A DNA stretch of 57,097 bases, taken from positions 10,950-68,046 of the forward strand of contig DOUE01000022.1 in NCBI GenBank assembly GCA_003520745.1, read 5' to 3'. The stretch comes from Erysipelotrichaceae bacterium (lineage in GTDB: Bacteria; Bacillota_I; Bacilli_A; Erysipelotrichales; Erysipelotrichaceae). Of this stretch, positions 26,260 through 47,248 are shown one piece after another. Within the stretch, counting starts at the first letter, position 1. Each line of letters starts with the position of its first letter. The position numbers were made by a program, and so were the translations under genes. Below the pieces are notes generated by a model, which saw only the letters and a program-made list of their open reading frames with translations, had not been told where the DNA came from and did not search any database.

Positions 26260-26284
26260 ACGGTGTTTCAGTTGTCTCTACGGA

Positions 26285-27755: not shown

Positions 27756-27763
27756 CGGTTACA
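27750..27763 (+). promoter_or_regulatory. cre box overlapping the -35 of the malE promoter
   Basis: TGTAAACGGTTACA is a perfect match to TGWAANCGNTNWCA. Confidence 0.7.
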
Positions 27764-27776
27764 CTTCACGAAACTT

Positions 27777-28595: not shown

Positions 28596-28610
28596 AGGTC
28601 CTCCTCGTAA

Positions 28611-28635
28611 GATAAGCGCGAATCTCGCGCTTATC
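28611..28635 (-). other. Intra-operon stem-loop overlapping the malG stop codon
   Basis: GATAAGCGCGA-ATC-TCGCGCTTATC, an 11-bp stem with a weak T run, immediately before the DUF1189 RBS. Confidence 0.4.
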
Positions 28636-29503
28636 CTTTTTCTGCTCCGGATGTCAAACCATAAACCATATACTTCTGCATGAAGAATTGGATGATCATG
28701 ATCGGGATTGCGATCAGCAAGGCACCGGCCATGAAGTTCAAGGGATTATAGACCAAGGTCAACAAGGGGTCGGTCGTACGATACAACCAGACGGCGACCG
28801 TCATTTGTTCAGGCTGCAGGAAGACGGATTGCAGGATGTAGTCGAGCCAAGGACCCATGAAGGCGCCGACGGCCAGGAAACCGACGATCGGAACGATCAA
28901 GGGGAACAAGATGAGACGAAGGATCTGGATCGGGGTCGCACCGTCGATCGCGGCGGCTTCATCCAAGGATTTCGGGATGTTGCGCATGAATCCGCGGACT
29001 AGGAACGTGTTGTACGGAATGGAACCGGCGGTGTAGATCAAGGCGAGGTAGTTGGGCTTGTTGAGGAAACCGAAGGTCCTGAACAGCAAGAACAAGGCGA
29101 TCATCCCCATGAACGACGGGAACATCTGCAGGATCATCATCGTCAGCAACATTTGCTTTTTACCCTTGAAACGCAGACGGGCGAAGGCGAAACCGGTGAT
29201 GACGGCGAAGAAGACGACGCCGACGGTGTTGAGAACCGCGATCTGCAAGGTGCGTACGAACGCGCCGGGATAGTCGGCGAACAACGACGCCGGGTTGGAT
29301 TTATACGTGAAGATGTAGTTGAAGTGTTCTAGCGACCATTTGGTGAAATCCGGAATCAACGGAACGCCCGACAGGAGTTTTCCCGGGGTGAAGGCGGCGG
29401 ATACCATCCAAATCAGAGGGACGAGAACGATGATCGCTCCCAGAATGAGCCAGATATGCGTTACGATGTTCATTAGGATATCCGATGCGCGATATTTTTT
29501 CAT
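28631..29503 (-). CDS. malG: Maltodextrin ABC permease
   Basis: 290 aa with 6 TM segments and EAA loop DEAAAIDGATPIQILRLILFP. Confidence 0.85.
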   Translation of the reverse strand: MKKYRASDILMNIVTHIWLILGAIIVLVPLIWMVSAAFTPGKLLSGVPLIPDFTKWSLEHFNYIFTYKSNPASLFADYPGAFVRTLQIAVLNTVGVVFFAVITGFAFARLRFKGKKQMLLTMMILQMFPSFMGMIALFLLFRTFGFLNKPNYLALIYTAGSIPYNTFLVRGFMRNIPKSLDEAAAIDGATPIQILRLILFPLIVPIVGFLAVGAFMGPWLDYILQSVFLQPEQMTVAVWLYRTTDPLLTLVYNPLNFMAGALLIAIPIMIIQFFMQKYMVYGLTSGAEKG

Positions 29504-29506
29504 GGC

Positions 29507-31069
29507 TTATTCCTCCTCCCAGATGCCTTTGGAGCGTGCAAGGTTGACCACCGAAATCGATCCGATGAAGATGAAGATCAAGATGGAGTAAACCGCTGCG
29601 ATGTTGAAGAGCTGTGCGTTGTTCGAGAATGAAAGTTTATAAATCCAGGAAATCAGGATGTCGGTCTGGCCGGGGATGCCGCCCATGACCTGCATGCTGA
29701 GGGGGATTTGTTCTAGATTGTATGCGGGTCCGCCTCCGGTCAGGAAGTAGATCGCGCCGAAGTTGTTGAAGTTGTAGGTGAAGGTCATGATGATCGCAGG
29801 CAAGGTCGCCCGTAGAATCAACGGTAAGGTGATGTTGCGGAAGGCCTGCCATTTGCTGGCCCCGTCGATCGCCGCGGCTTCATAGAGATCCTTCGGCAAG
29901 GTCGTCAAGACCCCCGTAATCAACATCATGAAATACGGGGCGCCCAACCATAGATTGACCAGGATGACGACCGCTTTCGCCAGATTCCCGTTATAGTTGA
30001 CCGTCAACCAGGAAATGACCGTATCGGGTCTGCCTTGCAATCCGATCTTGAAGAGGAAGTCGGATACCGCAGGCATCAAGCCCGTCTTCAATAACAACTG
30101 GTTGGCTAATCCTGTGTTTTCGAAAACGTTTCTGAAAACCATCAACGAAATCATCGCCGGGACCGCCCAAGGGACGATCATGATGGTACGCCAGAACTTT
30201 TTGAGTTTGACGTATTTCGATTCGATGATGATCGCTTGGATCAACCCCATGATATAGCAGGTCGCACTCGCCATGATGGCATAGAAGAACGTCCAGCCTA
30301 AGATCTGCGAGAACACCGAGAACCATCCCGGGTCGCCCGCGATCATGGCGAAGTTCTTGAACCCGACCCATTCGATCAAACGTGAAGGAACCGGAATCCG
30401 ATAGGTATAGTTGGTAAACGCCAACAAGAACGAGAACATGAACGGGATCAAGGTAAAGAAGAGAACCATGACCAAAGTCGGCACCAGGATAAGATACGGG
30501 AACATATCCGACCATAGGCGTTTCACATACTCTTTGCCGGTTTCGACGATGCCGTGTTTCAAGATCGTTTTACGGGAAACATACGCATCGCGGATATTGT
30601 AGATCCATACCGCGATGACGATCGAACTCAACACCAACGCGATCAACCCGCTACCAAGCAAAGTGACCGAGTTATCCGCGGACAGCCAAGGGATGATCTT
30701 GTTGAAGGTTTCGACCGCTTGACCGCGATAGAGTTCGCCGCGTACGACTTTCCCCAAGGTCGCCAAACCCCATAACCCCTTACTGAAGATTCCGCCATAG
30801 TCACGGATGAAATAGATCTGACTGCCGGGATCCGCCGGATATTGCGCCAGGTCGGAAAAAATGTAGAAGTATCCTCCGGTAAACAACTCCGTCAGGAAAG
30901 CGACTGCCCCGAATCCAAGAAACGTAAATCCCTTCGCTTTCTGCTTGTTGCGGAACTGGCCTAAGCCCATCACAAAAAAAGACATGACAGCGGATTTCAA
31001 TGCATCCGGGTTGTCCTTGATGTCTTTCAGGAGTTCATTCCACCGTTGGCCGAATTTTTTCTTCTTCAT
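29507..31069 (-). CDS. malF: Maltodextrin ABC permease (long MalF type)
   Basis: Start trimmed to MKKKKFGQRW (ATG 31067-31069, GGAGGG RBS). EAA loop YEAAAIDGASKWQAFRNITLP and an extended N-terminal domain. Confidence 0.85.
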   Translation of the reverse strand: MKKKKFGQRWNELLKDIKDNPDALKSAVMSFFVMGLGQFRNKQKAKGFTFLGFGAVAFLTELFTGGYFYIFSDLAQYPADPGSQIYFIRDYGGIFSKGLWGLATLGKVVRGELYRGQAVETFNKIIPWLSADNSVTLLGSGLIALVLSSIVIAVWIYNIRDAYVSRKTILKHGIVETGKEYVKRLWSDMFPYLILVPTLVMVLFFTLIPFMFSFLLAFTNYTYRIPVPSRLIEWVGFKNFAMIAGDPGWFSVFSQILGWTFFYAIMASATCYIMGLIQAIIIESKYVKLKKFWRTIMIVPWAVPAMISLMVFRNVFENTGLANQLLLKTGLMPAVSDFLFKIGLQGRPDTVISWLTVNYNGNLAKAVVILVNLWLGAPYFMMLITGVLTTLPKDLYEAAAIDGASKWQAFRNITLPLILRATLPAIIMTFTYNFNNFGAIYFLTGGGPAYNLEQIPLSMQVMGGIPGQTDILISWIYKLSFSNNAQLFNIAAVYSILIFIFIGSISVVNLARSKGIWEEE

Positions 31070-31124
31070 AATATACCCTCCTGTTGTTATTGTGCCATGA
31101 TTCTTGTGATTCTTCAAGGGTTAT

Positions 31125-31138
31125 GGTAAGCGTTTACA
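31125..31138 (-). promoter_or_regulatory. cre-like box in the malF / neopullulanase divergent region
   Basis: Minus strand TGTAAACGCTTACC matches the cre consensus at 13 of 14 positions. Confidence 0.45.
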
Positions 31139-31222
31139 TCATGATTCCCTCTGAAACCCTTTTCGCAAGGAAGTCGGTTGACATTTCCTTCCGGGTGGTT
31201 CAAAATATCGGCGAGGTGACCC

Positions 31223-32908
31223 ATGAACATCAACGCAATTTACCACCGGTCGCAAGACAACTGGTGTTTCCCCTATGACGACCATTCCGTGGAACTTCGG
31301 ATCCGCACCGGCTTGGAAGTGACGAAAGTCGTCTGCGAGTATGGCGACCAGCACGAAGGCACGGTCCTCTTTTCGAAGTGGAAATGGAAATCGCATGCGA
31401 TCGAAATGAAACGTAGCGGTCAAACCGCCCATCATCAATACTGGACATGCATCGTCACCCCCTCGAATCGACGCATGAAATATCACTTCATCCTATCCGA
31501 TGATCACGAAACCCTCGTTTTCGGCGAAACCAGCGTCCTTCCTCCCGATGAAGAACCCGATAACTTCAACTATTTCTTTTTCCCGTACTTCCATCGCAAA
31601 GAACGCTATTTCGCCCCTGCCTGGGTCAAGGATACCGTTTGGTACCAGATTTTCCCCGATCGTTTCGCCAATCAAGGAAACAGAGGGTTCAAAGCCTGGC
31701 ATAACGGTCCCGTGAAGAATTCCGACCATTACGGAGGCAACCTGAAAGGCATTCTTGAACACTTGGATTACTTGAAGGAATTAGGCATCAGTGGGATTTA
31801 TCTCACCCCGGTTTTCGCCTCCCCCACCACCCATAAATACGACACGCAGGACTATTTCACGATCGACCCGGACTTCGGTACGAAAGAAGATTTGATCGAA
31901 CTGGTAAAACAAGCGCATCGCAGAGGGATCAAAGTCATGTTGGACGCGGTGTTCAACCATGCCGGCGACCGATTCAAAAAGTGGATGGATGTGAAAAACA
32001 ATCCGGACTCGAACGATCGCGACTGGTTCTTCCTTGATGAGAAGAATCATTATGAAACATTCGCGTTTGCGAAAAACATGCCCAAACTCAATACCGAAAA
32101 CCCCGATGTCATCGATTACTTCTGCACCGTCGGGAAATACTGGATCGAGACCGCCGACATCGACGGTTGGCGATTGGATGTCGCCAATGAAATCAGCCAT
32201 ACGTTCTGGCGCGCGTTCAGACACGAAGTCCGCTCCGTCAAACCCGATGTCTATATCCTGGGCGAAGTCTGGCACGATGCGATGCCGTGGCTGCAAGGCG
32301 ACCAATTCGACGCCGTCATGAATTATCCCTACACGAAAATCCTGTTGGACTTGATCGCTCATGAGCGCATCGGCCTCGAAGAATTCAGAGCCGGGATCGA
32401 TGAAATCCGCAACCATTACCCCTCGATCGTCCAAGCCAACCAATTCAACCTCTTCGACAGCCATGACACCGCACGACTGACCACCCTATGTAAGAACGAC
32501 CTTACCAAAGTCAAAGGGGCGCTCGCTTTTCTCTTGGTCTCCCCTGGTTCACCTTGCATTTATTACGGTACGGAAATCGCGATGGAAGGCGGAAACGACC
32601 CGGATTGCCGGAGATTGATGCAATGGAATCCAGATCCAAAAAACCATGAATTGTTTAAACTGATCCAAACCTTCATCCAACTCCGCAAAGACCATCCCGC
32701 CTTGTCAAACGACGGTGACTGGAAGTGGATTGAAACCGCAAAAGAAGTCATCGCCTTTACTCGTTCAACGACGGATGAAACCTTTTCTTTCTATTACAAT
32801 CCGACAACCCGTCCGGTCTCGATTGAACAAAGAAAAGGCGAATCCCTCTATGGATCCGCCTCTGTGATTCTTGCGCCTGGGCAAATACAGCTCATCAAAG
32901 AAATGTAA
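31223..32908 (+). CDS. Neopullulanase / cyclomaltodextrinase / maltogenic amylase (GH13_20-like)
   Basis: 561 aa. N-domain MNINAIYHRSQDNWCFPYD, then DAVFNHAGD, DGWRLDVANEI, ILGEVWHD, LFDSHDTARL. Confidence 0.88.
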   Translation: MNINAIYHRSQDNWCFPYDDHSVELRIRTGLEVTKVVCEYGDQHEGTVLFSKWKWKSHAIEMKRSGQTAHHQYWTCIVTPSNRRMKYHFILSDDHETLVFGETSVLPPDEEPDNFNYFFFPYFHRKERYFAPAWVKDTVWYQIFPDRFANQGNRGFKAWHNGPVKNSDHYGGNLKGILEHLDYLKELGISGIYLTPVFASPTTHKYDTQDYFTIDPDFGTKEDLIELVKQAHRRGIKVMLDAVFNHAGDRFKKWMDVKNNPDSNDRDWFFLDEKNHYETFAFAKNMPKLNTENPDVIDYFCTVGKYWIETADIDGWRLDVANEISHTFWRAFRHEVRSVKPDVYILGEVWHDAMPWLQGDQFDAVMNYPYTKILLDLIAHERIGLEEFRAGIDEIRNHYPSIVQANQFNLFDSHDTARLTTLCKNDLTKVKGALAFLLVSPGSPCIYYGTEIAMEGGNDPDCRRLMQWNPDPKNHELFKLIQTFIQLRKDHPALSNDGDWKWIETAKEVIAFTRSTTDETFSFYYNPTTRPVSIEQRKGESLYGSASVILAPGQIQLIKEM

Positions 32909-33022
32909 TGACATGTAATAATTCGTTATTGTTTCATTGACGAGTACTGTTCTAAACACTCTATCGATCGTTCGTTGAGTTCATCTTTATGTATGTTGAA
33001 CATTTTAAGCATGAAATCATAA

Positions 33023-33913
33023 CTATTTTTTAGGTACGTTTAGCTGTTCCAACAATATCCCGACATTGCTTGGCCGATCCGCAACCAAGGCTCCCGCCTT
33101 CGTCAACGCTTCGATTTTATCTTCCACAGCGCCTTTACCACCTGTGATGATCGCGCCGGCATGACCCATCTTCTGTCCTTTGGGAGCCGTTCTGCCACCG
33201 AGAAATGCGACCAGCGGTTTGGTGAAAACGCCTTTTTCCATCGCTTCCGCAACCTCTTCTTCCATCGTCCCGCCCAGCTCGCCGATGATGACCACGGCTT
33301 CGGTTTGTTCATCCTGCTGGTAATAGGGTAGCATTTCCGCGAATCGGGTTGCGGGAACCGGATCGCCACCGACGCCGATCAGCGTCGAAACGCCGTATCC
33401 TCGTTTTACGATCATCGCGGTAACTTCGTTGGTCAATGAACCGCTACGTGTCATGACACCGATATTGCCGCGCTTATATACGCGTTGGATCCAATAGGGG
33501 AAACTGCCCATCATCGCTTCTTCCGGCGATATGACTCCGGAGGTGTTTCCGCCGATGACCAGTGCATCATGCTCGAGTGCCGCATGGCGTATGGCGACCA
33601 TATCGAAAAGCGGTATGCCGTCAGCCATCGTAACGATCTTCTTGATTCCGTTGGCAAGCGCTTCAAATACGGCGTCCTTCGTGAGTTTCGGGGGGACGAA
33701 AATCATGGATGCATCGACTTCATGATTTCTTAATGCCCGCTCGACCGAATGGTAAACCGGTATATCATGGATGGTTTGACCTTCTTTTGCAGGGGTGACA
33801 CCACAGATGACCTGGGTTCCCAAATCAATCATGTGCTTTGTCCAAAAACTACCCTCCGAGCCGGTGATCCCCTGAACTAAAACACGTGTATTCCGATCGA
33901 TGAAAATACTCAT
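33023..33913 (-). CDS. ADP-forming acyl-CoA ligase, alpha (CoA-binding/phosphohistidine) subunit, SucD-like; predicted sulfoacetate-CoA ligase subunit
   Basis: 296 aa. Motifs: VLVQGITGSEGSFWTK, SGSLTNEV and GHAGAIITGG (catalytic His loop). It overlaps the beta subunit gene by 4 nt. Confidence 0.8.
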   Translation of the reverse strand: MSIFIDRNTRVLVQGITGSEGSFWTKHMIDLGTQVICGVTPAKEGQTIHDIPVYHSVERALRNHEVDASMIFVPPKLTKDAVFEALANGIKKIVTMADGIPLFDMVAIRHAALEHDALVIGGNTSGVISPEEAMMGSFPYWIQRVYKRGNIGVMTRSGSLTNEVTAMIVKRGYGVSTLIGVGGDPVPATRFAEMLPYYQQDEQTEAVVIIGELGGTMEEEVAEAMEKGVFTKPLVAFLGGRTAPKGQKMGHAGAIITGGKGAVEDKIEALTKAGALVADRPSNVGILLEQLNVPKK

Positions 33914-35034
33914 ATCTTCGTCTCCTTCGCTAAGGCAACCGCCAAGCGAACCGCTTCTTCCGTATCAAAAAGTGGATTCAATCCGGCTTTTCGCAGAGTT
34001 TCGACAGCTTCAACTTCATTAGTCCCACGGATACACGTCACGATTGGACGATCCGGTTTTAATTTACCGATGGCTTCAACAATGCCTTGCGCCATCACAT
34101 CGGCACGGGCGATCGTTCCAAAGGTCACGATCAAGATGACTTTCGACGGAACTTTTAAACAGATTTCCATGGCTTTCATCGCTTTTTTATAGTGAGGTCC
34201 GCCAAATTCCAGATAATTCGCGATCGTTCCGCCTTCATAGTGAACCAAGTCGTAAACGGTCGTGGTTAATCCGGCTCCTGCGCACATCAAACTGATGTCG
34301 CCATCAAACTGAATGAACGGTATGCCTTCTTCCGCCGCCAAGCGCTCTGCTTCGTTTTCGATATCCCCCAGCGGAACGGAAATGTCTTCATGTCGAAACA
34401 TGGAGTTGTCATCGATCGAACACTTCCCATCCCCGGCAACCAACTCGTTTGATTTGGTGATGAAAAGCGGATTGATTTCCAATAACTCACAATCATACTG
34501 AACAAACAAACGATACAGTTTAACCAGCAATTGGGTAAATTTCTTTGCGATTTCAGGATCAAAGCCACATTCATACGCGATGTGGTTGGCTTGATATGCT
34601 TGTAACCCGAGGTTCATATCGATTTTTGTCTGAAGGATCTTATGTGGCTGTTCAATGGCCAATGTTTCGATATCGACGCCGCCGGTAGCGCTGACGATGG
34701 ATAGGGCTGATCCGCTGATTGGATCGATCGTAAATGAAGCATAGACTTCATGGGCAATATCCACGGCTTCTTCGATGAGCAAGGATGATATTTTTTGAGG
34801 CAGGGCAAACAGTCGGGTGACTTCTTCCATCCCTTTACCCTCGTTTTTTACAAACTGAATCAATCCGGCTTTGCCGCGTCCGCCACTCAACACCTGAGAT
34901 TTGATGACACAGGGAAACCCGATTTGAGCAAACGCTTCAGACGCCTGATCGACGCGATGAATCAATTGGCTTTTCGGAACAATGATCCCTGCATTTTTAA
35001 ACAGGTCTTTTACTTGATATTCAAAAAGTTTCAT
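33910..35034 (-). CDS. ADP-forming acyl-CoA ligase, beta (ATP-grasp) subunit, SucC-like; predicted sulfoacetate-CoA ligase subunit
   Basis: 374 aa. MKLFEYQVKDLFKNAGIIVPKS and KSQVLSGGRGKAG indicate an ATP-grasp fold. The start overlaps the ALDH stop. Confidence 0.8.
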   Translation of the reverse strand: MKLFEYQVKDLFKNAGIIVPKSQLIHRVDQASEAFAQIGFPCVIKSQVLSGGRGKAGLIQFVKNEGKGMEEVTRLFALPQKISSLLIEEAVDIAHEVYASFTIDPISGSALSIVSATGGVDIETLAIEQPHKILQTKIDMNLGLQAYQANHIAYECGFDPEIAKKFTQLLVKLYRLFVQYDCELLEINPLFITKSNELVAGDGKCSIDDNSMFRHEDISVPLGDIENEAERLAAEEGIPFIQFDGDISLMCAGAGLTTTVYDLVHYEGGTIANYLEFGGPHYKKAMKAMEICLKVPSKVILIVTFGTIARADVMAQGIVEAIGKLKPDRPIVTCIRGTNEVEAVETLRKAGLNPLFDTEEAVRLAVALAKETKI

Positions 35035-36443
35035 CAGCGATCCTTCTTCCCGCTGGCGAAATAGGCTCCGAATATTTCTTCATCACTCGGACGGACGGGC
35101 GGAAAGAACTCGGAAACCCAGGTCGTGTTGATGAAATGCTTGTACGTGATGTTTTCCGAGGTGATGTTTCCACCCCAACTGCCACATCCCAAGGATACGG
35201 TCGATGGCATGCCGTTAAAGAATGCGCCACCGTTCCCTGCGGCTTGCGCCTGATTGACTAGCACCCGGCTGCTACGGATTCTTGAGCCGATGTACTTAAC
35301 ATATTCATCGTTGAAGGTATGTATTCCACAGGAATGTCCGGTACCGTAATTATCGGTTAGTCTTTCGAGAATGCGATACCCTTCTTCAAAGGTTGCGTAC
35401 TTAAAGACCGTCAATACGGGGGACAGTTTTTCTTGGGAGAAAAAGTCGGATTCGATATCTTCCCTACCTTCGACGAGCAAAACTTTCACAGAATCGTCCA
35501 CCGTCAACATGGCTCCTTGAGCAATGGACCGTGCGGATTGAGCGATGATTTTGGGGTTGATCGAGCGATATCCTTTGTCGTTTAAAGGCCACATATACAT
35601 CGATAATTGTTCGCGCATGTCTTCGGAAACTAGGTAGGCACCCAGTGAAATCAACTGTTCGATCATTTGATCATAAATCGACTCATGAATGATGATGGAG
35701 TTTTCACTTGAACACGATGTCGCATGATCAAATGCTTTACTACCCATGATTTTCGTGGCAGCGTCTTTCACATTGGCGTCTTCGGCGACGATGGATACTG
35801 AATTACCGGGTCCGACGCCATAGGCCGGTTTACCGGATGAGTATGCGGCTTTAACCATCGCCCCGCCTCCGGTCGCAAGTACGACATCGACTTGTTTCAT
35901 GAGTTCTTCCGTGACTTCGATGGAGGGTTCATCAATGACTTGGATGAGATCTTCAGGAGCGTTGACCTTGCGAAGTCCGTCCCTCATAAATTGCACGGCC
36001 ATGGCCGTCGCTTTTTTGGATCTCGGATGCGGCGCAAAGATAACGGCGTTTCTACCTTTTAAGATCGTGATCCCATTGCTGGCAGGTGTCGCCGTCGGAT
36101 TGGTTACGGGAGTCAATGCGCCGACAACGCCAACCGGTTTGGCGAATTTCCTGATTTTCTTTACCTCGTCCACTTCAATGCAACCCACGGACTTGGCATG
36201 TTGGACATCTTTTAAAACACCGAGCACTTTGTTTTTGTGTTTAGTGATTTTGTCCTGGACATTCCCCATCTTCGTTTCTTCGACCGCAAGTTTAGCCAGT
36301 ATCTCAATGTTATGATCATTGTATACTTCCCAACCGATCGCTACACAAACTTCATCGATTTGCTCTTGGGTGTAAAACTGGATTTGTTTCTGTGCAGCTT
36401 TCGCCCTCTTTACGTAGGACGACACATACTCTTTCGAACTCAT
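35034..36443 (-). CDS. CoA-acylating aldehyde dehydrogenase (EutE/PduP/SauS-like); predicted sulfoacetaldehyde dehydrogenase (acylating)
   Basis: 469 aa ALDH fold. The short C-terminus and catalytic Cys segment FDHATSCSSENS are typical of acylating ALDHs. It lies directly upstream of the CoA ligase genes. Confidence 0.8.
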   Translation of the reverse strand: MSSKEYVSSYVKRAKAAQKQIQFYTQEQIDEVCVAIGWEVYNDHNIEILAKLAVEETKMGNVQDKITKHKNKVLGVLKDVQHAKSVGCIEVDEVKKIRKFAKPVGVVGALTPVTNPTATPASNGITILKGRNAVIFAPHPRSKKATAMAVQFMRDGLRKVNAPEDLIQVIDEPSIEVTEELMKQVDVVLATGGGAMVKAAYSSGKPAYGVGPGNSVSIVAEDANVKDAATKIMGSKAFDHATSCSSENSIIIHESIYDQMIEQLISLGAYLVSEDMREQLSMYMWPLNDKGYRSINPKIIAQSARSIAQGAMLTVDDSVKVLLVEGREDIESDFFSQEKLSPVLTVFKYATFEEGYRILERLTDNYGTGHSCGIHTFNDEYVKYIGSRIRSSRVLVNQAQAAGNGGAFFNGMPSTVSLGCGSWGGNITSENITYKHFINTTWVSEFFPPVRPSDEEIFGAYFASGKKDR

Positions 36444-36453: not shown

Positions 36454-37695
36454 TTATTTTATGATGCCTAGCCGGTGAAGCAGTCCTAAGAAAGTGGACA
36501 CGAAGGCTAAGGCAATGAACGCTACGATATACATTTTTTTGAAAAGCTTCTTCTCATCGACTCCTGCGGGTAAACTGCCCAAAGCCAGGGCTCCCATGAC
36601 GGATAGCGGACTCATGGTGGTCATATGCGAGGCGACCGCTATGGTCATCGTCAGGACTGCCGGACTCACCGCAAAGTTCAGACTTTCCGATAAGGCGACC
36701 GTCGTGGGTATCAGCGTCGGCATGACCACGCCGACCGCCGAAGCGAAGGTCGCCATGGTTCCGGAAAGAATCGATATGATGAAAACCGCGGTCTGACCAT
36801 TCGTAATCTTTGCTAGAAAATCGGTCATCATTTGAATGCCGCCGAGTTCACCGACGACACTGATCAAAACGGCTGCTCCGCAAATTTGAAGGATGGTTGT
36901 CCACGGAACGTGTTGAACGGCTTGTTGCTGATTGCCGGCTTTGAGAAAGAAGAGTCCGACTGCGAGGGTAAATCCAGCGAAACCGACGTGGGCTTTCCCG
37001 AAGATGACCCAGAGAATCAAGACCAGAATACTAAGCAATGTCAGTTTTTGCTCATAGGTGAAGGGTAACGGTGGTGAAACCTCCGTTTTCTGACCATTCA
37101 TCTTATAGCCTTTCATCGCGATAAAAAAGAGCGTTGAAAAGATGACGATGCTGATCATGTTTAGCAGGTAGATCGATATTCCGAGTTCTCCCACATTGTT
37201 TAATCGAGCCAGTTCCAAGGCGACGATCCCATTGGGGGCAATGGGGGACAATCCGCCGGCGATGGATCCTTGAATGATCAGGACGCTCATCAACAGTAAA
37301 GACATATTGGATTGATAGGCAATGGCTAACCCAATGGGTAAAAGCAGGGCCGCTGCTGAAATGTTCCCGGGTCCGATGGAAGCAAGTCCCAATGACAGCA
37401 CAAAGAAAATAATCTGGATCTTGATTTTGCTGCCCTTGCTGCGATAGATGATCATGGTTGACAGGTTTTCAAGGGTTCCGTTGATTTTCGCGATACTGAA
37501 AAACAATGTGACTCCTACCGTGGTGAAAAATAGGTTTAGCGGCCAAAATCCAATGATCGTGTTGGGGCTTAATCCACCTAGCGTCGTTCCTAGGAAGAAA
37601 GCAAATACGAGTGCGATAAACCCTACGTTGATATTCGTGGCTATGCCAATGATAATTGCGACTAAAATTGACAGTAGCGATATGATTTCAATCAT
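36454..37695 (-). CDS. Ion-transporter-superfamily anion permease (ArsB/NhaD/DASS-like); candidate sulfoacetate exporter
   Basis: 413 aa, highly hydrophobic with ~11-12 TM segments and an internal two-fold repeat organisation. It is embedded in the SQ operon. Confidence 0.55.
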   Translation of the reverse strand: MIEIISLLSILVAIIIGIATNINVGFIALVFAFFLGTTLGGLSPNTIIGFWPLNLFFTTVGVTLFFSIAKINGTLENLSTMIIYRSKGSKIKIQIIFFVLSLGLASIGPGNISAAALLLPIGLAIAYQSNMSLLLMSVLIIQGSIAGGLSPIAPNGIVALELARLNNVGELGISIYLLNMISIVIFSTLFFIAMKGYKMNGQKTEVSPPLPFTYEQKLTLLSILVLILWVIFGKAHVGFAGFTLAVGLFFLKAGNQQQAVQHVPWTTILQICGAAVLISVVGELGGIQMMTDFLAKITNGQTAVFIISILSGTMATFASAVGVVMPTLIPTTVALSESLNFAVSPAVLTMTIAVASHMTTMSPLSVMGALALGSLPAGVDEKKLFKKMYIVAFIALAFVSTFLGLLHRLGIIK

Positions 37696-37707: not shown

Positions 37708-38190
37708 TTACTGACGATGAAAGCTTTCTTTCTCAATTTTGGCTACGGCTTCCTTGGCCTTAACTAAGTTTTTAGCCCTCCATTCTTCCAGATTTTGGGT
37801 AAATTCGGTATTTAAGAAGGTTTTGGTCATTTCGACACCCATGATCGGCGCAATGATCCATCCACCCATACATAGAATGTTGGCGTCGTTGATGGCACGG
37901 CACTTCTCGGCTGCATATACGGATTCGCAGGCTGCCCCGAAAACACCTTCATGCTTGTTGGCGACGATGGACATGCCCATGCCGGTTCCGCAAATCAGGA
38001 TGCCTCTTGTGTATTCTTTGGATTGAATTTTCAGTGCGCCTTTAAGCGCAACATCGAAGAAAGGCGCAGGTTTTTCTTCATCGGTGGTGCCGATGTCTTC
38101 GACTTCATAGGCTTCGCCAAGTAGATATTGTTTAATGGCTTCTTTCAATGCAAACCCGGATTTGTCTGATCCGATAAAGATTTTTTTCAT
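37708..38190 (-). CDS. RpiB/LacA/LacB-family sugar(-phosphate) isomerase; candidate 4-deoxy-4-sulfoerythrose isomerase
   Basis: Start trimmed to MKKIFIGSDKSGFALK (ATG 38188-38190). Motifs: ILICGTGMGMSIVANK and NILCMGG. Confidence 0.8.
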   Translation of the reverse strand: MKKIFIGSDKSGFALKEAIKQYLLGEAYEVEDIGTTDEEKPAPFFDVALKGALKIQSKEYTRGILICGTGMGMSIVANKHEGVFGAACESVYAAEKCRAINDANILCMGGWIIAPIMGVEMTKTFLNTEFTQNLEEWRAKNLVKAKEAVAKIEKESFHRQ

Positions 38191-38194: not shown

Positions 38195-39139
38195 CTACCC
38201 TTTTCTTTCGAGAACGCGATGCACGGCATCGACGATGTTATGTGCTTTGAGCCCGAATTTCTCCATTAAGAAGTCTTTCTTGCCGACTTCGCCAAAATGA
38301 TCTTTGGTTCCGACGCGTTCCATGACGACCGGATATTCTTCAACCAGAACTTCGGCGACCGCACTGCCCAACCCGTTGATGATATTATGGTTTTCGGCGG
38401 TAACGATTGCCCGGGTCTTCTTTGCTTCAGCAATAATCGCTTCTCGATCGATCGGCTTTACTGTGTGAATATTGACGACGCTCGCGGATATGCCTTCTTC
38501 GGCTAGGATTTTGCGTGCTTCTAGTGCTTCTACCACCATGATCCCCGTCGCAAAGATACTGACATCGGTTCCTTCTTCGAGTTTGATCGCTTTACCTAAG
38601 GTGAATTGGGTTCCATCTGCGAAGACCGATGGAAATTCCTGGCGAAGAAGTCGGATATATACCGGACCGTAGTGTTCGATGATCTGATCAAACATACCGG
38701 CGAGCTGTACGCCATCGACCGGTTCAAAGATGGTCATGGTCGGAATGGTTCTCATGATCCCGACGTCTTCCAAAGACATGTGCGTACCACCATTTAAGGT
38801 AGCCATGATTCCCGGATCTGATCCCACCATTTTGACATTGAGCTGGGCATAGGCGACCGACAGCATGACTTGGTCGAAACAGCGGCGTGTAGCAAACGGT
38901 GTGAAGGTGTGCGTGAACGGCAGTTTCCCCATGTTGCTTAACCCGGCGGCGACGCCGATCATATTGGCTTCAGCGACACCGACATTGATGGTTCTTTCCG
39001 GGAATACTTCCGCGAAGCCGGTGGTTTTCGCAGCTTTCATCAAGTCAGCTTCAACGATGACCAGATTCGGATGCTTTTTCGCGGCTTCAATCAGTAAATC
39101 TACGTAGATATCTCTTAATTGACGATCATGTAATTTCAT
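38195..39139 (-). CDS. Transketolase, C-terminal (Pyr + C domain) subunit
   Basis: 314 aa. Motifs: FPERTINVGVAEANMIGVAAGL and IFEPVDG. It overlaps the N subunit gene by 4 nt. Confidence 0.9.
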   Translation of the reverse strand: MKLHDRQLRDIYVDLLIEAAKKHPNLVIVEADLMKAAKTTGFAEVFPERTINVGVAEANMIGVAAGLSNMGKLPFTHTFTPFATRRCFDQVMLSVAYAQLNVKMVGSDPGIMATLNGGTHMSLEDVGIMRTIPTMTIFEPVDGVQLAGMFDQIIEHYGPVYIRLLRQEFPSVFADGTQFTLGKAIKLEEGTDVSIFATGIMVVEALEARKILAEEGISASVVNIHTVKPIDREAIIAEAKKTRAIVTAENHNIINGLGSAVAEVLVEEYPVVMERVGTKDHFGEVGKKDFLMEKFGLKAHNIVDAVHRVLERKG

Positions 39140-39954
39140 TTTCTTTCCAACCTCGCAATCGCTTCGTTCGCTTGATCCATCGTTACAGGCATATTGTGTG
39201 AGCCGGCTTGTCCTTCACAGAAGTAAGCGCCTTTTCCTTTTATGGTGTTCAGTATGATCATCGAAGGTTTCCCTTTGACTTCTTTTGCATGATCGATCGC
39301 TTCCGAAATGGCTAGCACATCATGCCCGTCAATGACTTGTACGTGCCAGTTGAATGCTTCCCATTTCTTGTCGAGCGGGGCAACATCGTTGATATCGCAG
39401 ACGGCACCGTCGATTTGTAATTTGTTGTAGTCGGTAAAGGCGATCAACGTGTCCAGTCCGCGACTTCCAGCGAACATGGCGGACTCCCAAATCTGGCCTT
39501 CTTGGCTTTCGCCATCACCGATGATTGCGTAAACCGTTAATAGGGACCCATCCAACTGAGCCGCAGTGACCATGCCTACCGCAGCGGAGAATCCTTGACC
39601 TAAGGACCCGGTGGTCATATCGACGCCGATGGTTTTGTTTTTATCGGTATGACTAGGTAAGTTGGTGTTTGACTGATTCAGTGTCAATAGCAGCGACTTG
39701 TCAAAATACCCCTTGATGGCCAATGTTGCATATACGGCCGGTCCACCATGGCCTTTCGATAAAACAAATCGATCACGGCTCAATAAGCCCGGATTCTTGG
39801 GGTCGATGTTCATTTTTTCAAAATAGAGTACGGCCAAAACATCGGCGATCGACAGGCTTCCGCCGATATGACCGACACCCAACGTACCGATGCACCGCAA
39901 GGTTTCTTGGCGGATTTCTTTCGCCTTTTCTTCTAAATACGCTCTTTTTTCCAT
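39136..39954 (-). CDS. Transketolase, N-terminal (ThDP/PP domain) subunit
   Basis: 272 aa. Motifs: GHIGGSLSIADVLAVLYF, SKGHGGPAVYA and the IIGDGESQEGQIWE ThDP motif (GDG...E). Confidence 0.9.
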   Translation of the reverse strand: MEKRAYLEEKAKEIRQETLRCIGTLGVGHIGGSLSIADVLAVLYFEKMNIDPKNPGLLSRDRFVLSKGHGGPAVYATLAIKGYFDKSLLLTLNQSNTNLPSHTDKNKTIGVDMTTGSLGQGFSAAVGMVTAAQLDGSLLTVYAIIGDGESQEGQIWESAMFAGSRGLDTLIAFTDYNKLQIDGAVCDINDVAPLDKKWEAFNWHVQVIDGHDVLAISEAIDHAKEVKGKPSMIILNTIKGKGAYFCEGQAGSHNMPVTMDQANEAIARLERK

Positions 39955-39965: not shown

Positions 39966-41306
39966 TTAGTATTTTACTACTTCACACGCGAATAATTGAG
40001 CCAATACTTCCAATTCTTCTTTGATATCCCCATAAATAACGACGAAGTGTGGTTCCCATCCATCTTGTACCATGTTCGTGATCAGCGGATTCACTTTGGG
40101 TTCCACTTCGACGACGACACTGGTTCCTAAGAATTGTTGGGGCTTGTCCAATACTTTTCCATCGAGGATCAAAAACCTGAATGTCCCATCCGGTTTACGA
40201 CCGATTCGGAAGATTGTGGCTTCTTTACATTCCTTAAGTCCAAACTCCATGGTCGGTCCGATTTTTCGATTGGGATGAACACCCACGGCTGCGCCGGTAT
40301 CTTTTCTAGCCAAACCGCAGGCAGCGGTTCCGCAATGCCAGAACGTAATGGTGTTTTCTTCTTCATCGATCGAGACGGGATCCCCAAGATAGGTTGGCGA
40401 TTTCGAGAGTTGTTGTCCGATATACATACTCAATGCGCCATAAGCGTCGGCTTCACAGGCCGCCGCAACGTTTTGATCGTTGAGCATGGCCAGCACACTG
40501 CATACCGGGGTTCCGTAATCCGTAAAGAAGTCCGGCCAGCATCGCGAAGCTATGGCTTTGATTTGATTTTTATCGATATAGTCTTGATATGCTTTGTACA
40601 GTTTGACAAAGTCGACGCGGTTTTTGGTTACGGTTTTATCCAATCCGACCATTCGCCGACCAATTTCATTTTCTTCGTTTTTTGCATCTTCGATCTTCAT
40701 TTCCTGGGCAATCTTGGTCAGTTCTCGTGATTCAATGGCGAGAAGATTGACACCGAAGGTCGAGGCCATTTCGAGATCCAAAGCACGGCCGAAGCCGAAT
40801 CCCTGCGGGGTGTGTCCAACCATCAGAAGATTCGCGTTTTTCATTTCGTGTTTCAACTTCGCGGCATGAATGATCTTTTTCAGTCTGTTTTGAATGCCAT
40901 CTTCGCTGGGTGAGCCATACATGTAGAAAATTCTGTCTTTTCTCATCGCTTTGTAGGCATACCCTGCCGAGAACGCTCCGGTTAATGAGTTAAGTCTGAG
41001 TCTTCCGCCATCAATGACAGGTTCACGTAACGTCCACAACAAGACTGGCGCAGAGATACGTTTCAATACTTCCGTCGCATATGCAGAGTTGGCAAAGGTT
41101 ACATTCTGTAAAATCACCAAGTCGGGATTCTTCCCATCGATATACTTAAGTAGCGTTTCGATAGACAATAGCATTTCACTGCTGACGGTAATCGTCTCGT
41201 CGATGCTCTTGAGCAAGCTGATTGAATCCTCATATGCTCTTTGGGCGGATTCTAAGTGAAATGTCGGAACACCAATCGGTACATATAGACATTCAAACGG
41301 TTTCAT
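39966..41306 (-). CDS. L-fucose/L-arabinose isomerase-family protein (COG2407-like), role in the SQ operon unassigned
   Basis: 446 aa. Motifs: ASRCWPDFF, AACEADAYGALS, FWHCGTA, GWEPHFVVIYGD. Confidence 0.75.
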   Translation of the reverse strand: MKPFECLYVPIGVPTFHLESAQRAYEDSISLLKSIDETITVSSEMLLSIETLLKYIDGKNPDLVILQNVTFANSAYATEVLKRISAPVLLWTLREPVIDGGRLRLNSLTGAFSAGYAYKAMRKDRIFYMYGSPSEDGIQNRLKKIIHAAKLKHEMKNANLLMVGHTPQGFGFGRALDLEMASTFGVNLLAIESRELTKIAQEMKIEDAKNEENEIGRRMVGLDKTVTKNRVDFVKLYKAYQDYIDKNQIKAIASRCWPDFFTDYGTPVCSVLAMLNDQNVAAACEADAYGALSMYIGQQLSKSPTYLGDPVSIDEEENTITFWHCGTAACGLARKDTGAAVGVHPNRKIGPTMEFGLKECKEATIFRIGRKPDGTFRFLILDGKVLDKPQQFLGTSVVVEVEPKVNPLITNMVQDGWEPHFVVIYGDIKEELEVLAQLFACEVVKY

Positions 41307-41366: not shown

Positions 41367-42575
41367 TTATTTCTTGGCGTCTTTGAGTTTGGTTTCTAGT
41401 TCTTGTAACGCTTCCAACGGCGTTGCTTCTTTAGCGACAGCTTTGCGGATGGCTTCGTTGATCATCGGATACATTCCCGGAACCATGACTTGAGTTAACC
41501 AGTCTTGAACATAGGATGCATCGGTCGCGGCGATTTCATCAAGGAATATGGCATACTCATCTTTGAAATTGCCATAGTCGACTTCTGCGCCTAAACGCGG
41601 TGTCAAGTAAGGAACTCCACCGGTATATCTGTCGTGGTTTTCGCCTTTGGCTAACCAAGTAATGAATTTCTTGGCTTCTTTGGGAGCGTTGGAGTCCATA
41701 AACGCTGCGATGGACTTACCGCCGAGAATGGTCGCGCGGTTTGTTTCTTTCGGCATCGGGACGACCGTCCAGTCAAATGTCAAGTCTTGATAACTGCTGA
41801 CATTCCAGTTGCCTGACATATGGAAGCCGTATGCGCCCGTTCTAAACAAAGAGGCGGCGGTTGTACCGGCATAAACGGCATCGTCAATTAATCCACTTTC
41901 ATAGAAACCGACGAGTTTAGTCAATGCGTCGACAGCTGCGGTTCCAGTCAAATTACTTTCAGTGTACGGTGTTTTCCAGATTTTTGTTCCGTGTTGATAA
42001 ACCATCGGGAAAAAGCGGTGTGCTTGAGGATCGAAGACGCCCGGGAAGTTAACATCGGTACCGACACCGGCACGAAGCTTATTTACTTCGGTCTCGAATT
42101 CGTCCCATGTCCAGACGGCTTCGCCCGGTTTCGGATAGTTTACCCCGTATTTTTCCATCAAATCAACATTGATGAATAATCCGTTGGCCGTAATGTCCAT
42201 GGGTAGTGCAATAACTTCTTCATCATCATTATAGAATAAGTTGGTGAATCCCGCGCTGTCAAAGACACCTTTTAAACTCTGGATTTTTCCTTTGAAGTTA
42301 TTCAAATGTCCTTCGGTGACGCGTGCGAGTGCAGGAGCTTCTCCTCCACTGATCATGGTTGCCAAACGTGCTTCATAATCAGCGTAAGGAATTACGACTA
42401 ATTCGATTTTTACGCCTGTTTTCGTTTCGTATTCTGTAAGCAATGTTTGCATGACCGCACCTTCGGTGCCGTCGCTCCACCACAGCATTTGCAGTTCTTT
42501 AGGTTCTTGCTTAGCGCAAGCACTAAAGCCGGAGATAACGAATAAGACTAAAAGCAGACTAAGTATTCTTTTCAT
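41367..42575 (-). CDS. ABC sugar-binding lipoprotein (CUT1); candidate SQ / sulfoquinovosyl-glycerol binding protein
   Basis: 402 aa with lipobox MKRILSLLLVLFVISGFSAC and an SBP family 1 pattern. Confidence 0.8.
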   Translation of the reverse strand: MKRILSLLLVLFVISGFSACAKQEPKELQMLWWSDGTEGAVMQTLLTEYETKTGVKIELVVIPYADYEARLATMISGGEAPALARVTEGHLNNFKGKIQSLKGVFDSAGFTNLFYNDDEEVIALPMDITANGLFINVDLMEKYGVNYPKPGEAVWTWDEFETEVNKLRAGVGTDVNFPGVFDPQAHRFFPMVYQHGTKIWKTPYTESNLTGTAAVDALTKLVGFYESGLIDDAVYAGTTAASLFRTGAYGFHMSGNWNVSSYQDLTFDWTVVPMPKETNRATILGGKSIAAFMDSNAPKEAKKFITWLAKGENHDRYTGGVPYLTPRLGAEVDYGNFKDEYAIFLDEIAATDASYVQDWLTQVMVPGMYPMINEAIRKAVAKEATPLEALQELETKLKDAKK

Positions 42576-44339: not shown

Positions 44340-46358
44340 TTATCCCCCTTTCCCATATTTCTTGTAAATATCTTCGAACAACGTTCGATAGGTCGATTGT
44401 TTCCGGTAGAATACCGGCGGATATCCGATGGGTGCATCCACCGTGATTTCTCCACCATCGAATTCTGCTCCTGTCCATAAGTGAATCCAGGTATCGGAGG
44501 GTAGATAACATGTCTGGGAAAGTTGAGACTCTTTGACGATCGGTTTTACATACAAATCCTGTCCGAAAAGGTATTCGTACTGTAGATCAAACACTTTCTC
44601 GTCTTCCGGATAATGTAAGAACAATGGTCGCTGCAACGGATAGCCAAATTTCGTCGCCTCTTCAACCAATCTCAAGAAATACGGTTTCAAGTCGACTTTG
44701 ATATTCGAGCATCGAGCCATGTGTTTCATGGTATCCACATCGTTGTAAAATTGGAAGTTCTGACTCGGACGGTTTCCTTCGTGGCTTCTCATGTAAGAGG
44801 AGAATATGTTCATTTCACACCAGCGGTCAAACAACTCCTTGGTTCGGATGTTTCCGTGTAAGCTGGTATATCCGCCGATATCGCTGTGTGTATAGGGGTT
44901 TCCGATGATGCCGGTGGAAAGTGCGGATGGAATGACGGAGGCGATTCCGTCATGGGTTTCCCAATTGACGCTTTGATCTCCTGCCCACATCGATGTGCAG
45001 TACTTTTGTGAGCCAAAGCCACCAGCTCGCATAAAGTAGAAGACTTTCCCCAAATTCCCAGATTCCTTAACGGCTTCGTAATTACACTTCGCCCATAATA
45101 CCGGCCAGGCGTTGTGCATGATTTTCGCACTTACACCGTTATGCAGGACACAGTCGATGGGCAAATATTCCCCGAAGTCCGCCATCCAGCCTTTGATGCC
45201 CAAGGACAGAATGTTCTTTTTAATCACATTCTTATACCACTCGAATCCCAGAGGGTTTGTCAGATCGACAATACCGCAATAGAATTCGCCGAAATCTTCG
45301 AGATATGGATTCCCCTCAACATCAAGGGCAAGATATCCAAACGATTTCGCCTCGTTGAACAGCGTTTCGTTTTCCAATAAGAACGGGCAGATATAGGTCA
45401 GAAAGGCGATGTTTTCCTTATTCAGTTCAGCGATCTCATCCTTTAAATTGGGGTAGAGTTTCTCATTGAGCACCCAGTTCCAGTACAATCGCTTTCCAAA
45501 CGTGGTAAAGCGGTGCCCGACCCAGTCTTGAACCCAAAGGCCGTTGACTTTAATCCCATTTTCAAGCGCAAGGTCTTTGTATTTGCGTACGGTTTCCATG
45601 CCACCTTGGACACCTAGGATGATCCCATCGTGCAAGAAGTCAGGTAGCATCGGCGGTCTTCCTGTAAATTCGGTCAGGTCGGTCAAGAGTTCAAGGTAAC
45701 TATCACTGAAATTCAATGTCAGTTCACAGGGAACTTCCCAAAACATTAATTCATGAAAATCCGGTGATCGGAAATCAAACTCGGCATAGGCCGTCGATTC
45801 CACATGCAACCAGTATTTCCGGGTGGATACGAAGGTTGGTTCCGGATAATAGGTCGTGTAGTAGTCCCCACCAGCCTTATCCACTTTATCCGCATAGAAT
45901 GTTGTCAATGAAGATTTATCGCGTCCAACGCCGGGCTCGGAGGTCCAGAGCGGATATTTCCTGTTTCTTAAGTTGAAGTAGGAGGCTTGTTCTCCACACC
46001 CGTATACTTTTTCACCGGCATCTGCTTTCATTCGGATCCAGAAGCGATTGACATCGGTTTTGTTGCATGAGAATTTCATGGTCAACCGTTGACTCACAAT
46101 GAGGAATTCAACGGTAAGAGACTCGCCGTGACTTGAGAAAACACAACTGTTTTCGACGACCTGTGCTTCTGTCAGTGGAATCCGACTCTCTAGTCGGTCT
46201 TCGATTTGATAGTTGCCACGATAACTTTCAATCGTTTCATTTCCCCGCCCAACAAAAACGAACGGATGATCACTTGAATGTTCAAGGATGCACTCATCTT
46301 TGAACATCACTCTCAACCGATCTTTATTTTTCTCAAGTGTTAACATATCTTCCTCCAT
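44340..46358 (-). CDS. yihQ: GH31 sulfoquinovosidase (YihQ family)
   Basis: 672 aa. Long collinear similarity to E. coli YihQ as I remember it: QDWVGHRFTTFGKRLYWNW (KRxxW Arg/Trp sulfonate pocket), GWMADFGEYLP (nucleophile Asp), HNGVSAKIMHNAWPVLWAKCNYEA, MWAGDQSVNW (acid/base Asp), HSDIGGYT (sulfonate Tyr) and SHEGNRP. Confidence 0.85.
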   Translation of the reverse strand: MEEDMLTLEKNKDRLRVMFKDECILEHSSDHPFVFVGRGNETIESYRGNYQIEDRLESRIPLTEAQVVENSCVFSSHGESLTVEFLIVSQRLTMKFSCNKTDVNRFWIRMKADAGEKVYGCGEQASYFNLRNRKYPLWTSEPGVGRDKSSLTTFYADKVDKAGGDYYTTYYPEPTFVSTRKYWLHVESTAYAEFDFRSPDFHELMFWEVPCELTLNFSDSYLELLTDLTEFTGRPPMLPDFLHDGIILGVQGGMETVRKYKDLALENGIKVNGLWVQDWVGHRFTTFGKRLYWNWVLNEKLYPNLKDEIAELNKENIAFLTYICPFLLENETLFNEAKSFGYLALDVEGNPYLEDFGEFYCGIVDLTNPLGFEWYKNVIKKNILSLGIKGWMADFGEYLPIDCVLHNGVSAKIMHNAWPVLWAKCNYEAVKESGNLGKVFYFMRAGGFGSQKYCTSMWAGDQSVNWETHDGIASVIPSALSTGIIGNPYTHSDIGGYTSLHGNIRTKELFDRWCEMNIFSSYMRSHEGNRPSQNFQFYNDVDTMKHMARCSNIKVDLKPYFLRLVEEATKFGYPLQRPLFLHYPEDEKVFDLQYEYLFGQDLYVKPIVKESQLSQTCYLPSDTWIHLWTGAEFDGGEITVDAPIGYPPVFYRKQSTYRTLFEDIYKKYGKGG

Positions 46359-47035
46359 TAATAGTAGATCTCAATGTTTTCCCCATGGATCGCGCTGATT
46401 GCATTGAGTTCAACCATTCGAGTGTTTTCCGGGTGATTTAGCAGCCATTTGTTTGTCTTGAATAGAAACTTGCCATATTTCCCTTGATTGCCTTTGGCAC
46501 TGACAAATTCCATGTTGGTACCATAAGGTAGAATGACCGCGCATTTGAAGCCTGAATCGGTTACTTTACAAGGAGAGAAGTGCAACGTCGTTGAATACAC
46601 TTCGATCGCCGTATTCTGGGGGATATAGAATGCGGTCACTTTGGAGGAGTGAAACGTCGAATCGTCAATATCCTCTATATGCGCAAGCAGTAATACAAGC
46701 GGGGTGACGCACACATTGATTTCGGAACTCTTGTGGAATTCAAGGGCATTGAGTTTGGAGTTGTTCCCGTTGACGTAGCCATATTCTAACGGCACCCTCC
46801 CGAAGGTGTTGTGTATGACGGAGAGATCGGAAACGAGATCCCCCAATTCAGCCCGATGCGGTACATATTCATTGCCCACACTAGGCACAGTTGTGTGTAA
46901 CTCTAAATATCTGATCAAATCACCAAATTCGCTGACGTCCAACACTTCCCCAAATCGACTAAACTCAGGATCGTGTACGGAATGGATTTGGATGTGGGGG
47001 TTCTTGACCCGAAGATTCTCTAGCATTTCATTCAT
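46358..47035 (-). CDS. DUF4867-like cupin protein; candidate sulfoquinovose isomerase (SqvD/SftI type)
   Basis: 225 aa, first gene of the operon. Its stop overlaps the GH31 start (TAATG). The family assignment comes from size, predicted beta-rich composition and context, not from a search. Confidence 0.55.
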   Translation of the reverse strand: MNEMLENLRVKNPHIQIHSVHDPEFSRFGEVLDVSEFGDLIRYLELHTTVPSVGNEYVPHRAELGDLVSDLSVIHNTFGRVPLEYGYVNGNNSKLNALEFHKSSEINVCVTPLVLLLAHIEDIDDSTFHSSKVTAFYIPQNTAIEVYSTTLHFSPCKVTDSGFKCAVILPYGTNMEFVSAKGNQGKYGKFLFKTNKWLLNHPENTRMVELNAISAIHGENIEIYY

Positions 47036-47219: not shown

Positions 47220-47248
47220 ATTATATATTTTCCTATTCACCGCGTCAA
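47220..47248 (-). promoter_or_regulatory. Strong sigma-A-type promoter of the SQ operon
   Basis: Minus strand TTGACG (47243-47248), a 17-nt spacer, then TATAAT (47220-47225). This implies a ~178-nt leader. Confidence 0.7.

Follow-up and report, generated by a model that had tools for sequence, protein, structure and literature searches.

A predicted SqwD and SqwKL module for the ATP-yielding oxidation of sulfoacetaldehyde at the end of a sulfo-transketolase operon in an Erysipelotrichaceae bacterium

The stretch of DNA analysed here (the window; 57,097 nucleotides, positions 10,950 to 68,046 of contig DOUE01000022.1, assembly GCA_003520745.1) comes from an Erysipelotrichaceae bacterium and carries an operon for the breakdown of sulfoquinovose (SQ). 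The last three genes of this operon encode an aldehyde dehydrogenase (ALDH) and the two subunits of a ligase with the architecture of succinyl-CoA synthetase (SCS). We conclude that these three genes very probably form a module of the SqwD plus SqwKL type, which would oxidise the sulfoacetaldehyde released from SQ to sulfoacetate and make one ATP in doing so. The evidence lies in their orthology to characterised enzymes, in the residues that line the substrate site of the ligase and in the operon to which they belong.

Reviews and research papers have noted that some sulfo-transketolase (sulfo-TK) clusters are without the reductase SqwF. The oxidative variant of the pathway, proposed in 2021-2022 and demonstrated in 2023, is placed by reviews in Firmicutes, Tenericutes and Spirochaetes. 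The conversion of sulfoacetaldehyde to sulfoacetate with formation of ATP is attributed to recombinant SqwD and SqwKL of Acholeplasma sp. (Chu et al. 2023, Appl Environ Microbiol 89:e00617-23), and PMC11659671 and PMC11489063 describe NAD+- and CoA-dependent oxidation of sulfoacetaldehyde as shown for the SqwD orthologue.

Results

The three genes of the module

The module consists of the following genes.

35034-36443, minus strand: SqwD orthologue, predicted CoA-acylating sulfoacetaldehyde dehydrogenase; 469 aa, PF00171 Aldedh, catalytic Cys244.
33910-35034, minus strand: SqwK orthologue, SucC-like β subunit; 374 aa, ATP-grasp_2 and Ligase_CoA domains.
33023-33913, minus strand: SqwL orthologue, SucD-like CoA-binding α subunit; 296 aa, CoA_binding and Ligase_CoA domains, His251, Asn162.

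An earlier note on this DNA had described three minus-strand open reading frames (ORFs) here, translationally coupled through overlapping stops and starts, and its coordinates and overlaps are borne out by our reading of the frames and their junctions. The stop codon of the ALDH gene and the start of the β-subunit gene share one nucleotide at 35034 (TGATG, within cgcTGATGaaa), the β-subunit stop and the α-subunit start share the four nucleotides ATGA at 33910-33913, and each start is preceded by a purine-rich ribosome-binding site of the GGAG/AAGGA type. Both of the motifs quoted in that note are also present. ATSCSSENS occupies residues 241-249 of the ALDH, with Cys244 unchanged in all 43 homologues compared, and GHAGAIITGG occupies residues 250-259 of the α subunit, where His251, set within MGHAGAI, is unchanged in 70 of 70 sequences. 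The Pfam domains and the latter motif together identify the ligase as a two-subunit enzyme of the SCS architecture with its phosphohistidine loop.

Orthology to the characterised Acholeplasma enzymes

Over 456 residues the ALDH of the window shows 75% identity to A0A3A6N9T6 (entry name SQWD_ACHSX) in UniProt, an Acholeplasma sp. protein described there as 'Sulfoacetaldehyde dehydrogenase ... CoA-acylating'. The 90% cluster of homologous ALDHs that contains this entry led to a 90,380-bp Acholeplasma sp. contig, L091, which we used as the reference. The SqwK and SqwL blocks shown in PMC11489063 (Fig. S9 and S10) recur without change in its K and L genes, which identifies L091 as the characterised cluster. 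Two other candidates were set aside: P0085, from an Acholeplasmataceae metagenome-assembled genome (MAG), was ruled out as the characterised record, and P0160/L090 proved to be only a near-identical relative, matching at 113 of 114 fragment positions.

All 13 genes of the SQ operon in the window are collinear with L091, at 50-79% identity, and the ligase subunits are 63% (SqwK) and 79% (SqwL) identical to their counterparts there. The published alignment blocks separate the possible relatives clearly. Within them the window ligase is 84-91% identical to SqwK and 74-84% to SqwL, compared with 38-45% to HpfY/HpfZ and 32-61% to pig SCS; in these comparisons the published HpfY/HpfZ blocks stand in for full-length HpfXYZ of Enterococcus gilvus, just as a Sau-type locus of Desulfosporosinus stands in for the SauS/SauCD enzymes of Bilophila. 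Among solved structures, the ALDH is closest to acylating dehydrogenases, the best match being the acylating succinate-semialdehyde dehydrogenase 8CEI, with 5J78 and the N-terminal domain of AdhE also among them. The gene for this SqwD-like ALDH also adjoins those for SqwKL within a sulfo-TK cluster.

A substrate-site signature in the ligase

In pig SCS (5CAE) the distal carboxylate of succinate contacts α Tyr167 and the backbone of a β-subunit Gly-Ile-Val segment (PMC11489063, section 14), and in HpfYZ the same places are taken by α His160 and β Gly-Ile-Asn, the last residue being Asn312 (PMC11489063). The window ligase has neither arrangement. Its α subunit has Asn162 (in TRSGSLTNE) and its β subunit Thr307-Ile308-Ala309 (in VTFGTIARAD), precisely as in the SqwL and SqwK blocks of Fig. 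S9 and S10. The earlier note had called for the substrate pocket to be compared with those of bona fide succinyl-CoA synthetases, and the outcome is that the residues that contact succinate are replaced, with residues of the SqwKL type in their stead.

These replacements characterise a whole clade of ligases. In a residue alignment of 48 β and 52 α sequences from the clade with 28 SucC and 18 SucD sequences, the α-subunit asparagine is found in 52 of 52 clade members and tyrosine in 18 of 18 SucD sequences; the glycine of Gly-Ile-Val is present in every SucC (28/28), and Thr-Ile-Ala occurs in every clade member and in no sequence from outside. Seven β-subunit positions at which SucC never varies carry other residues throughout the clade, further clade-wide changes at such positions being N252A, T260V, F274Y, D276E, A280P and N303V. 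The α subunit shows, again throughout the clade, a change of the SucD motif GPNCPG to GGNTSG (residues 121-126), together with a short insertion (Trp141, Ile142). We take the Cys-Pro of the SucD motif to lie near the thiol of CoA, so that this change and the insertion may also help to shape the acyl pocket. Both subunits score below the NCBIfam equivalog cut-offs for the true succinate enzymes, the β subunit at 310 against 370 for SucC and the α subunit at 329 against 336 for SucD. Public records label the ligase 'succinate--CoA ligase' or succinyl-CoA synthetase.

Distribution of the clade

A genome scan that took one genome per species recovered 47 loci whose β subunits are 49-98% identical to that of the window, after which identity falls sharply to the 32-39% of true SucC. 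The hosts include Erysipelotrichales, Izemoplasmatales, Acholeplasmataceae, Spirochaetota, Victivallales/Lentisphaerae, Verrucomicrobiota, Christensenellales and Desulfosporosinus, among others. Of these clade loci, 39 extend far enough upstream to judge, and in every one an ALDH homologue lies directly upstream of the ligase; the remaining eight begin too near the ligase. Most clade loci also carry either a split transketolase accompanied by RpiB or a gene for GH31, and none of 30 SucC loci does so.

One member of the clade stands in a different metabolic setting. In Desulfosporosinus fructosivorans (NZ_SPQQ01000002.1, L038 5558-16044) the ligase, which has the same Asn and Thr-Ile-Ala signature as that of the window, is found with a more distant ALDH (41%), an Xsc-like three-domain thiamine pyrophosphate enzyme, a GntR regulator and TctCBA. 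This is the layout of the sulfoacetate-degradation systems built from SauS, SauCD and SauXYZ (PMC10413351), and the locus is apparently a sulfoacetate-degradation cluster in a Gram-positive sulfite/sulfate reducer. The clade is thus connected with sulfoacetate and its CoA ester, sulfoacetyl-CoA, in either direction of metabolism.

The sulfo-transketolase operon and its surroundings

The module forms the 3' end of a tightly packed run of 13 genes on the same strand, a sulfo-TK operon that extends from 47035 to 33023 (minus). An SQ isomerase, a split SqwGH, a SqwI of the RpiB type and a sulfoquinovosidase, which together define a sulfo-TK cluster, are all present. The features upstream of the module are as follows.

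47220..47248, minus strand: promoter-like site TTGACG-17-TATAAT, agreeing with the consensus at 11/12 positions, some 185 nt upstream of the cluster's opening gene; the operon probably starts here.
46358..47035, minus strand: SqvB-like DUF4867 protein, first cluster gene; PF16161, 218 bits; 50% identical to its L091 counterpart.
44340..46358, minus strand: predicted GH31 sulfoquinovosidase of the YihQ type; GH31 domains; 928 bits (cut-off 553) on NF007746/PRK10426, a model based on E. coli YihQ; 63% to L091.
43434-44336 and 42622-43437, minus strand: two permeases of an ATP-binding cassette (ABC) importer; BPD_transp_1; 61% and 71% to L091.
41367..42575, minus strand: ABC solute-binding protein, whose ligand is presumably SQ or SQ-glycerol; SBP_bac_1/8; 64% to L091.
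39966..41306, minus strand: predicted sulfoquinovose isomerase of the SqvD/SftI type; sole NCBIfam match NF048012 SftI, whose cut-off of 700 it misses at 405 bits; 65% to L091.
39136..39954, minus strand: SqwG, N-terminal half of transketolase; Transketolase_N; 76% to L091.
38195..39139, minus strand: SqwH, C-terminal half of transketolase; Transket_pyr and Transketolase_C; 79% to L091.
37708..38190, minus strand: SqwI, predicted sulfoerythrose/sulfoerythrulose isomerase of the RpiB/LacAB family; PF02502, 144 bits; 78% to L091.
36454..37695, minus strand: MatC_N/CitMHS (SLC13-like) permease, candidate sulfoacetate exporter; PF07158 and PF03600; 53% to L091.

The promoter-like site is by itself weak evidence, since it is a consensus match only and the scanned region, in which chance would supply 1.7 such sites, yielded one. 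SqwI is 160 aa long in public records, and the longest ORF extends to 38229. The importer comprises two permeases and a binding protein, with no ABC ATPase gene in the operon, implying that it presumably shares an ATPase encoded elsewhere. In the Acholeplasmataceae MAG contig JAIPGC010000002.1 (L089 615-3551) the gene for the SQ-binding protein of the importer is apparently split by an insertion sequence: a transposase ORF of 516 aa (DDE_Tnp_IS240/rve_3; 1059-2609) lies between fragments that match residues 19-116 and 104-400 of the window protein.

The SQ cluster of the window has no evident regulator gene. The operon is embedded among genes for glycogen and maltodextrin metabolism, with glgB, glgP and pullulanase upstream and several α-amylases and a maltodextrin-type ABC system downstream, and the region has the look of one devoted to carbohydrate utilisation (window 1-7000, 20000-33000 and 47500-54100). 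Farther along the window are glgC/D/A and pgk-tpi-eno, and housekeeping genes are also present. Pfam annotation of all the window's genes revealed no other enzyme of the tricarboxylic acid (TCA) cycle, no microcompartment gene and no Pta/Ack pair, which extends to all 57 kb what the earlier note had said of the immediate neighbourhood; the same annotation contains no glycyl-radical enzyme, no Fe-alcohol dehydrogenase of the SqwF type and no 4-hydroxybutyrate genes.

Discussion

The proposed pathway

The gene content of the operon suggests the following course of events. SQ glycosides would be imported by the ABC system and hydrolysed by the YihQ-type GH31 enzyme, after which SqvD would convert SQ to sulfofructose. 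The split transketolase SqwGH would then transfer two C2 ketol units, one after the other, to glyceraldehyde-3-phosphate; between these transfers SqwI would isomerise sulfoerythrose, and sulfoacetaldehyde would be left. By homology to SqwD, SauS and other acylating dehydrogenases, the aldehyde would form a thiohemiacetal on Cys244 of SqwD and pass a hydride to NAD+, and thiolysis by CoA would free sulfoacetyl-CoA. SqwKL would then carry out the reaction of succinyl-CoA synthetase in the ATP-forming direction: phosphate would displace CoA to give sulfoacetyl phosphate, whose phosphoryl group would be transferred to His251 of the α subunit and from there, in the β-subunit ATP-grasp domain, to ADP. 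Sulfoacetate would probably leave the cell through the adjacent MatC/CitMHS-type permease. Compared with the reductive variant, in which SqwF forms isethionate, each SQ would thus yield one additional ATP, and one NADH would be made instead of consumed. The sequence itself establishes the genes present, their order, their motifs and their orthology to characterised enzymes; the activity and direction in this organism, the NAD+ preference and the exporter are inferred.

The earlier note had proposed the essentials of this scheme, and they fare well. It assigned the ALDH to the sulfoacetaldehyde released by the second transketolase step, had the ligase turn sulfoacetyl-CoA into sulfoacetate and ATP, and saw an NADH-consuming end step become an NADH-producing one. 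This interpretation is supported by the collinear orthology of the window genes to those characterised in Acholeplasma sp. Experiments of the kind that the note called for have already been carried out with the orthologue and with the reverse-acting SauS/SauCD of Bilophila (PMC10413351).

Several points nevertheless weigh against this interpretation. Neither the direction of flux nor the preference of the dehydrogenase for NAD+ or NADP+ can be read from sequence, and the direction that we favour is taken from context, because the operon makes sulfoacetaldehyde and the window is without a desulfonating enzyme, a reductase or a sulfoacetate importer. A reductive SqwF branch may lie elsewhere in the genome, beyond the 57-kb window, and would make the pathway bifurcated. 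The best NCBIfam match of the ALDH, whose matches include no SqwD-specific model, is to SauS (NF047625) at 515 bits, below the cut-off of 600, although that equivalog model was built on NADP-dependent enzymes that act in reverse. A terminator scan 3' of the α-subunit gene, the last of the operon, gave no clear terminator.

Alternative substrates and directions

Could the three genes instead encode an ordinary SucCD and an acylating succinate-semialdehyde dehydrogenase, serving succinate or 4-hydroxybutyrate metabolism and merely lying beside the sulfosugar genes? The best structural matches point that way, being succinyl-CoA synthetases for the ligase and the Clostridium kluyveri-type enzyme 8CEI for the dehydrogenase, as does the public annotation of the ligase as 'succinate--CoA ligase'. 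We regard this as exceedingly improbable, however, because neither subunit reaches its equivalog cut-off for SucC or SucD, because identity to true SucC is only 32-39%, because the residues that contact succinate are replaced (α Tyr by Asn and β Gly-Ile-Val by Thr-Ile-Ala, with seven SucC-invariant positions also changed), and because of the context, the genes being translationally coupled within an SQ operon in a window where genes for the TCA cycle and 4-hydroxybutyrate are lacking. SauCD and HpfYZ, relatives that have been characterised, are moreover inactive on succinate (PMC10413351, PMC11489063). A C3 module of the HpfX/HpfYZ type, which would take 3-sulfopropionaldehyde through 3-sulfopropionyl-CoA to 3-sulfopropionate and ATP, shares the architecture and the ATP-yielding logic of the window genes and is likewise attached to a sulfoglycolysis cluster in E. 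gilvus. The window ligase, however, has Asn162 and Ala309 in place of the proposed Hpf signature residues α His160 and β Asn312, and its identity to the HpfY/HpfZ blocks is low (38-45%, compared with 74-91% to SqwK/SqwL). Its context is that of a transketolase and RpiB, and the window provides no route to 3-sulfopropionaldehyde, since the glycyl-radical dehydratase HpfG, HpfD and transaldolase are all lacking. With HpfG and HpfD absent as well as the signature, we consider such a module extremely unlikely.

The remaining alternative concerns direction and not substrate. Imported sulfoacetate might be activated at the expense of ATP and reduced to sulfoacetaldehyde, either for desulfonation or as an electron sink, as in the Sau systems. 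The same ligase clade performs this reverse reaction in sulfite reducers, the Desulfosporosinus locus has a Sau-type context, and the SauS and SauCD reactions are both reversible in vitro (PMC10413351). The window, however, contains no Xsc, no IseG/IseH, no TauF or SqwF reductase and no importer of the tripartite tricarboxylate transporter (TTT) type, and its ALDH resembles the NAD+-linked SqwD (75% identity) much more than it does the ALDHs of Sau-type loci (about 42%). These two considerations make the reverse use very unlikely, and the genes moreover share one operon with the enzymes that would produce sulfoacetaldehyde. Oxidation of sulfoacetaldehyde by SqwD and SqwKL thus remains much the best account of the module.

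Comparison with known systems

The closest known system is that of Acholeplasma, with which the window has in common the two enzymes, the D-K-L order with its translational coupling, the catalytic cysteine, the phosphohistidine and the Asn and Thr-Ile-Ala signature, as well as the whole gene order SqvB-YihQ-permease-permease-SBP-SqvD-SqwG-SqwH-SqwI-permease-SqwD-SqwK-SqwL (SBP being the solute-binding protein). The differences lie in the host, which is here a member of the Erysipelotrichaceae, and in what follows the operon. In Acholeplasma the operon is succeeded by a GntR/UTRA regulator, a major facilitator superfamily transporter and a second GH31 gene (L091 14729-19635; L090 7809-12711), whereas none of these follows it in the window, where a convergent amylase gene is found instead.

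The other systems share the chemistry more than the setting. SauS and SauCD of Bilophila wadsworthia, a reverse-acting pair that has been biochemically characterised (PMC10413351), comprise an acylating sulfoacetaldehyde dehydrogenase and a sulfoacetate-CoA ligase (ADP-forming) of the same families and with the same chemistry, but they run in the opposite direction, consume ATP, depend on NADPH and occur with a TTT importer in an IseG or Xsc context. HpfX and HpfYZ of E. gilvus, part of an extended sulfo-transaldolase pathway, likewise couple an acylating ALDH to an SCS-like ligase for substrate-level phosphorylation from a sulfonated aldehyde; the substrate in that case is a C3 compound, HpfYZ is inactive on sulfoacetate, and HpfG and HpfD are needed in addition (PMC11489063). 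SucCD itself (pig 5CAE, E. coli 1JKJ) agrees with the window ligase in fold, in the order of its domains, in its mechanism through a phosphohistidine and in the nucleotide site of the ATP-grasp domain, and differs from it in the features already described: low identity, scores that place the window subunits outside its equivalogs, different residues at the succinate site, and a TCA context that the window does not have.

A candidate sulfoacetate exporter

The permease encoded between SqwI and SqwD is called a di/tricarboxylate transporter or an SLC13 family permease in public records, and it occupies the same position in the characterised cluster. A gene for it is found at this place only in the clusters of Erysipelotrichales, Izemoplasmatales and Acholeplasmataceae (L091 10001-11245, L089 7334-8575, L017-L021, L055), and is absent from the SqwD-KL loci of spirochaetes, Victivallales and Christensenellales. 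The start of the permease gene is annotated in two ways, as 350 aa in GenBank (L001 7529-8581) and as 413 aa in other records and in the longest ORF; the longer form is favoured because a full-length Pfam MatC_N match begins at its second residue.

The Pfam family name MatC denotes a dicarboxylate (malonate) carrier, and sulfoacetate would closely resemble malonate. The sulfoacetate transporter proposed for Bilophila belongs to the sodium:sulfate symporter family, and reviews either name an exporter 'SqwE', of the TauE/SafE type, or describe SqwE as lacking. The MatC/CitMHS permease, which is of a different family from this SqwE, seems not to have been described as a sulfoacetate exporter in the literature surveyed. 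We suggest, as a tentative proposal that has somewhat less than an even chance of proving right, that this permease is a dedicated sulfoacetate exporter and that the Asn and Thr-Ile-Ala residues, the GGNTSG change and the insertion have together retuned an SCS to a shorter, sulfonated substrate. Chu et al. 2023 may already cover either point.

Biological implications

As a straightforward orthologue of a module that was characterised in 2023 and has since been reviewed, the locus is already known in kind. What it adds is a lineage, the Erysipelotrichaceae of groundwater and sediment, in which the ligase is still annotated as a succinyl-CoA synthetase in public databases. Two smaller points also arise from it, namely the permease as a possible exporter and the Asn and Thr-Ile-Ala signature as a target for mutagenesis and as an annotation rule, which could serve to correct the succinyl-CoA synthetase labels.

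The wider importance of such a module, as known for the orthologous system, is that it decides which sulfonate, sulfoacetate or isethionate, is passed from an SQ fermenter to its sulfite-reducing partners. It is likewise known for that system that one extra ATP per sugar matters to anaerobes living on the head group of a very abundant plant sulfolipid.

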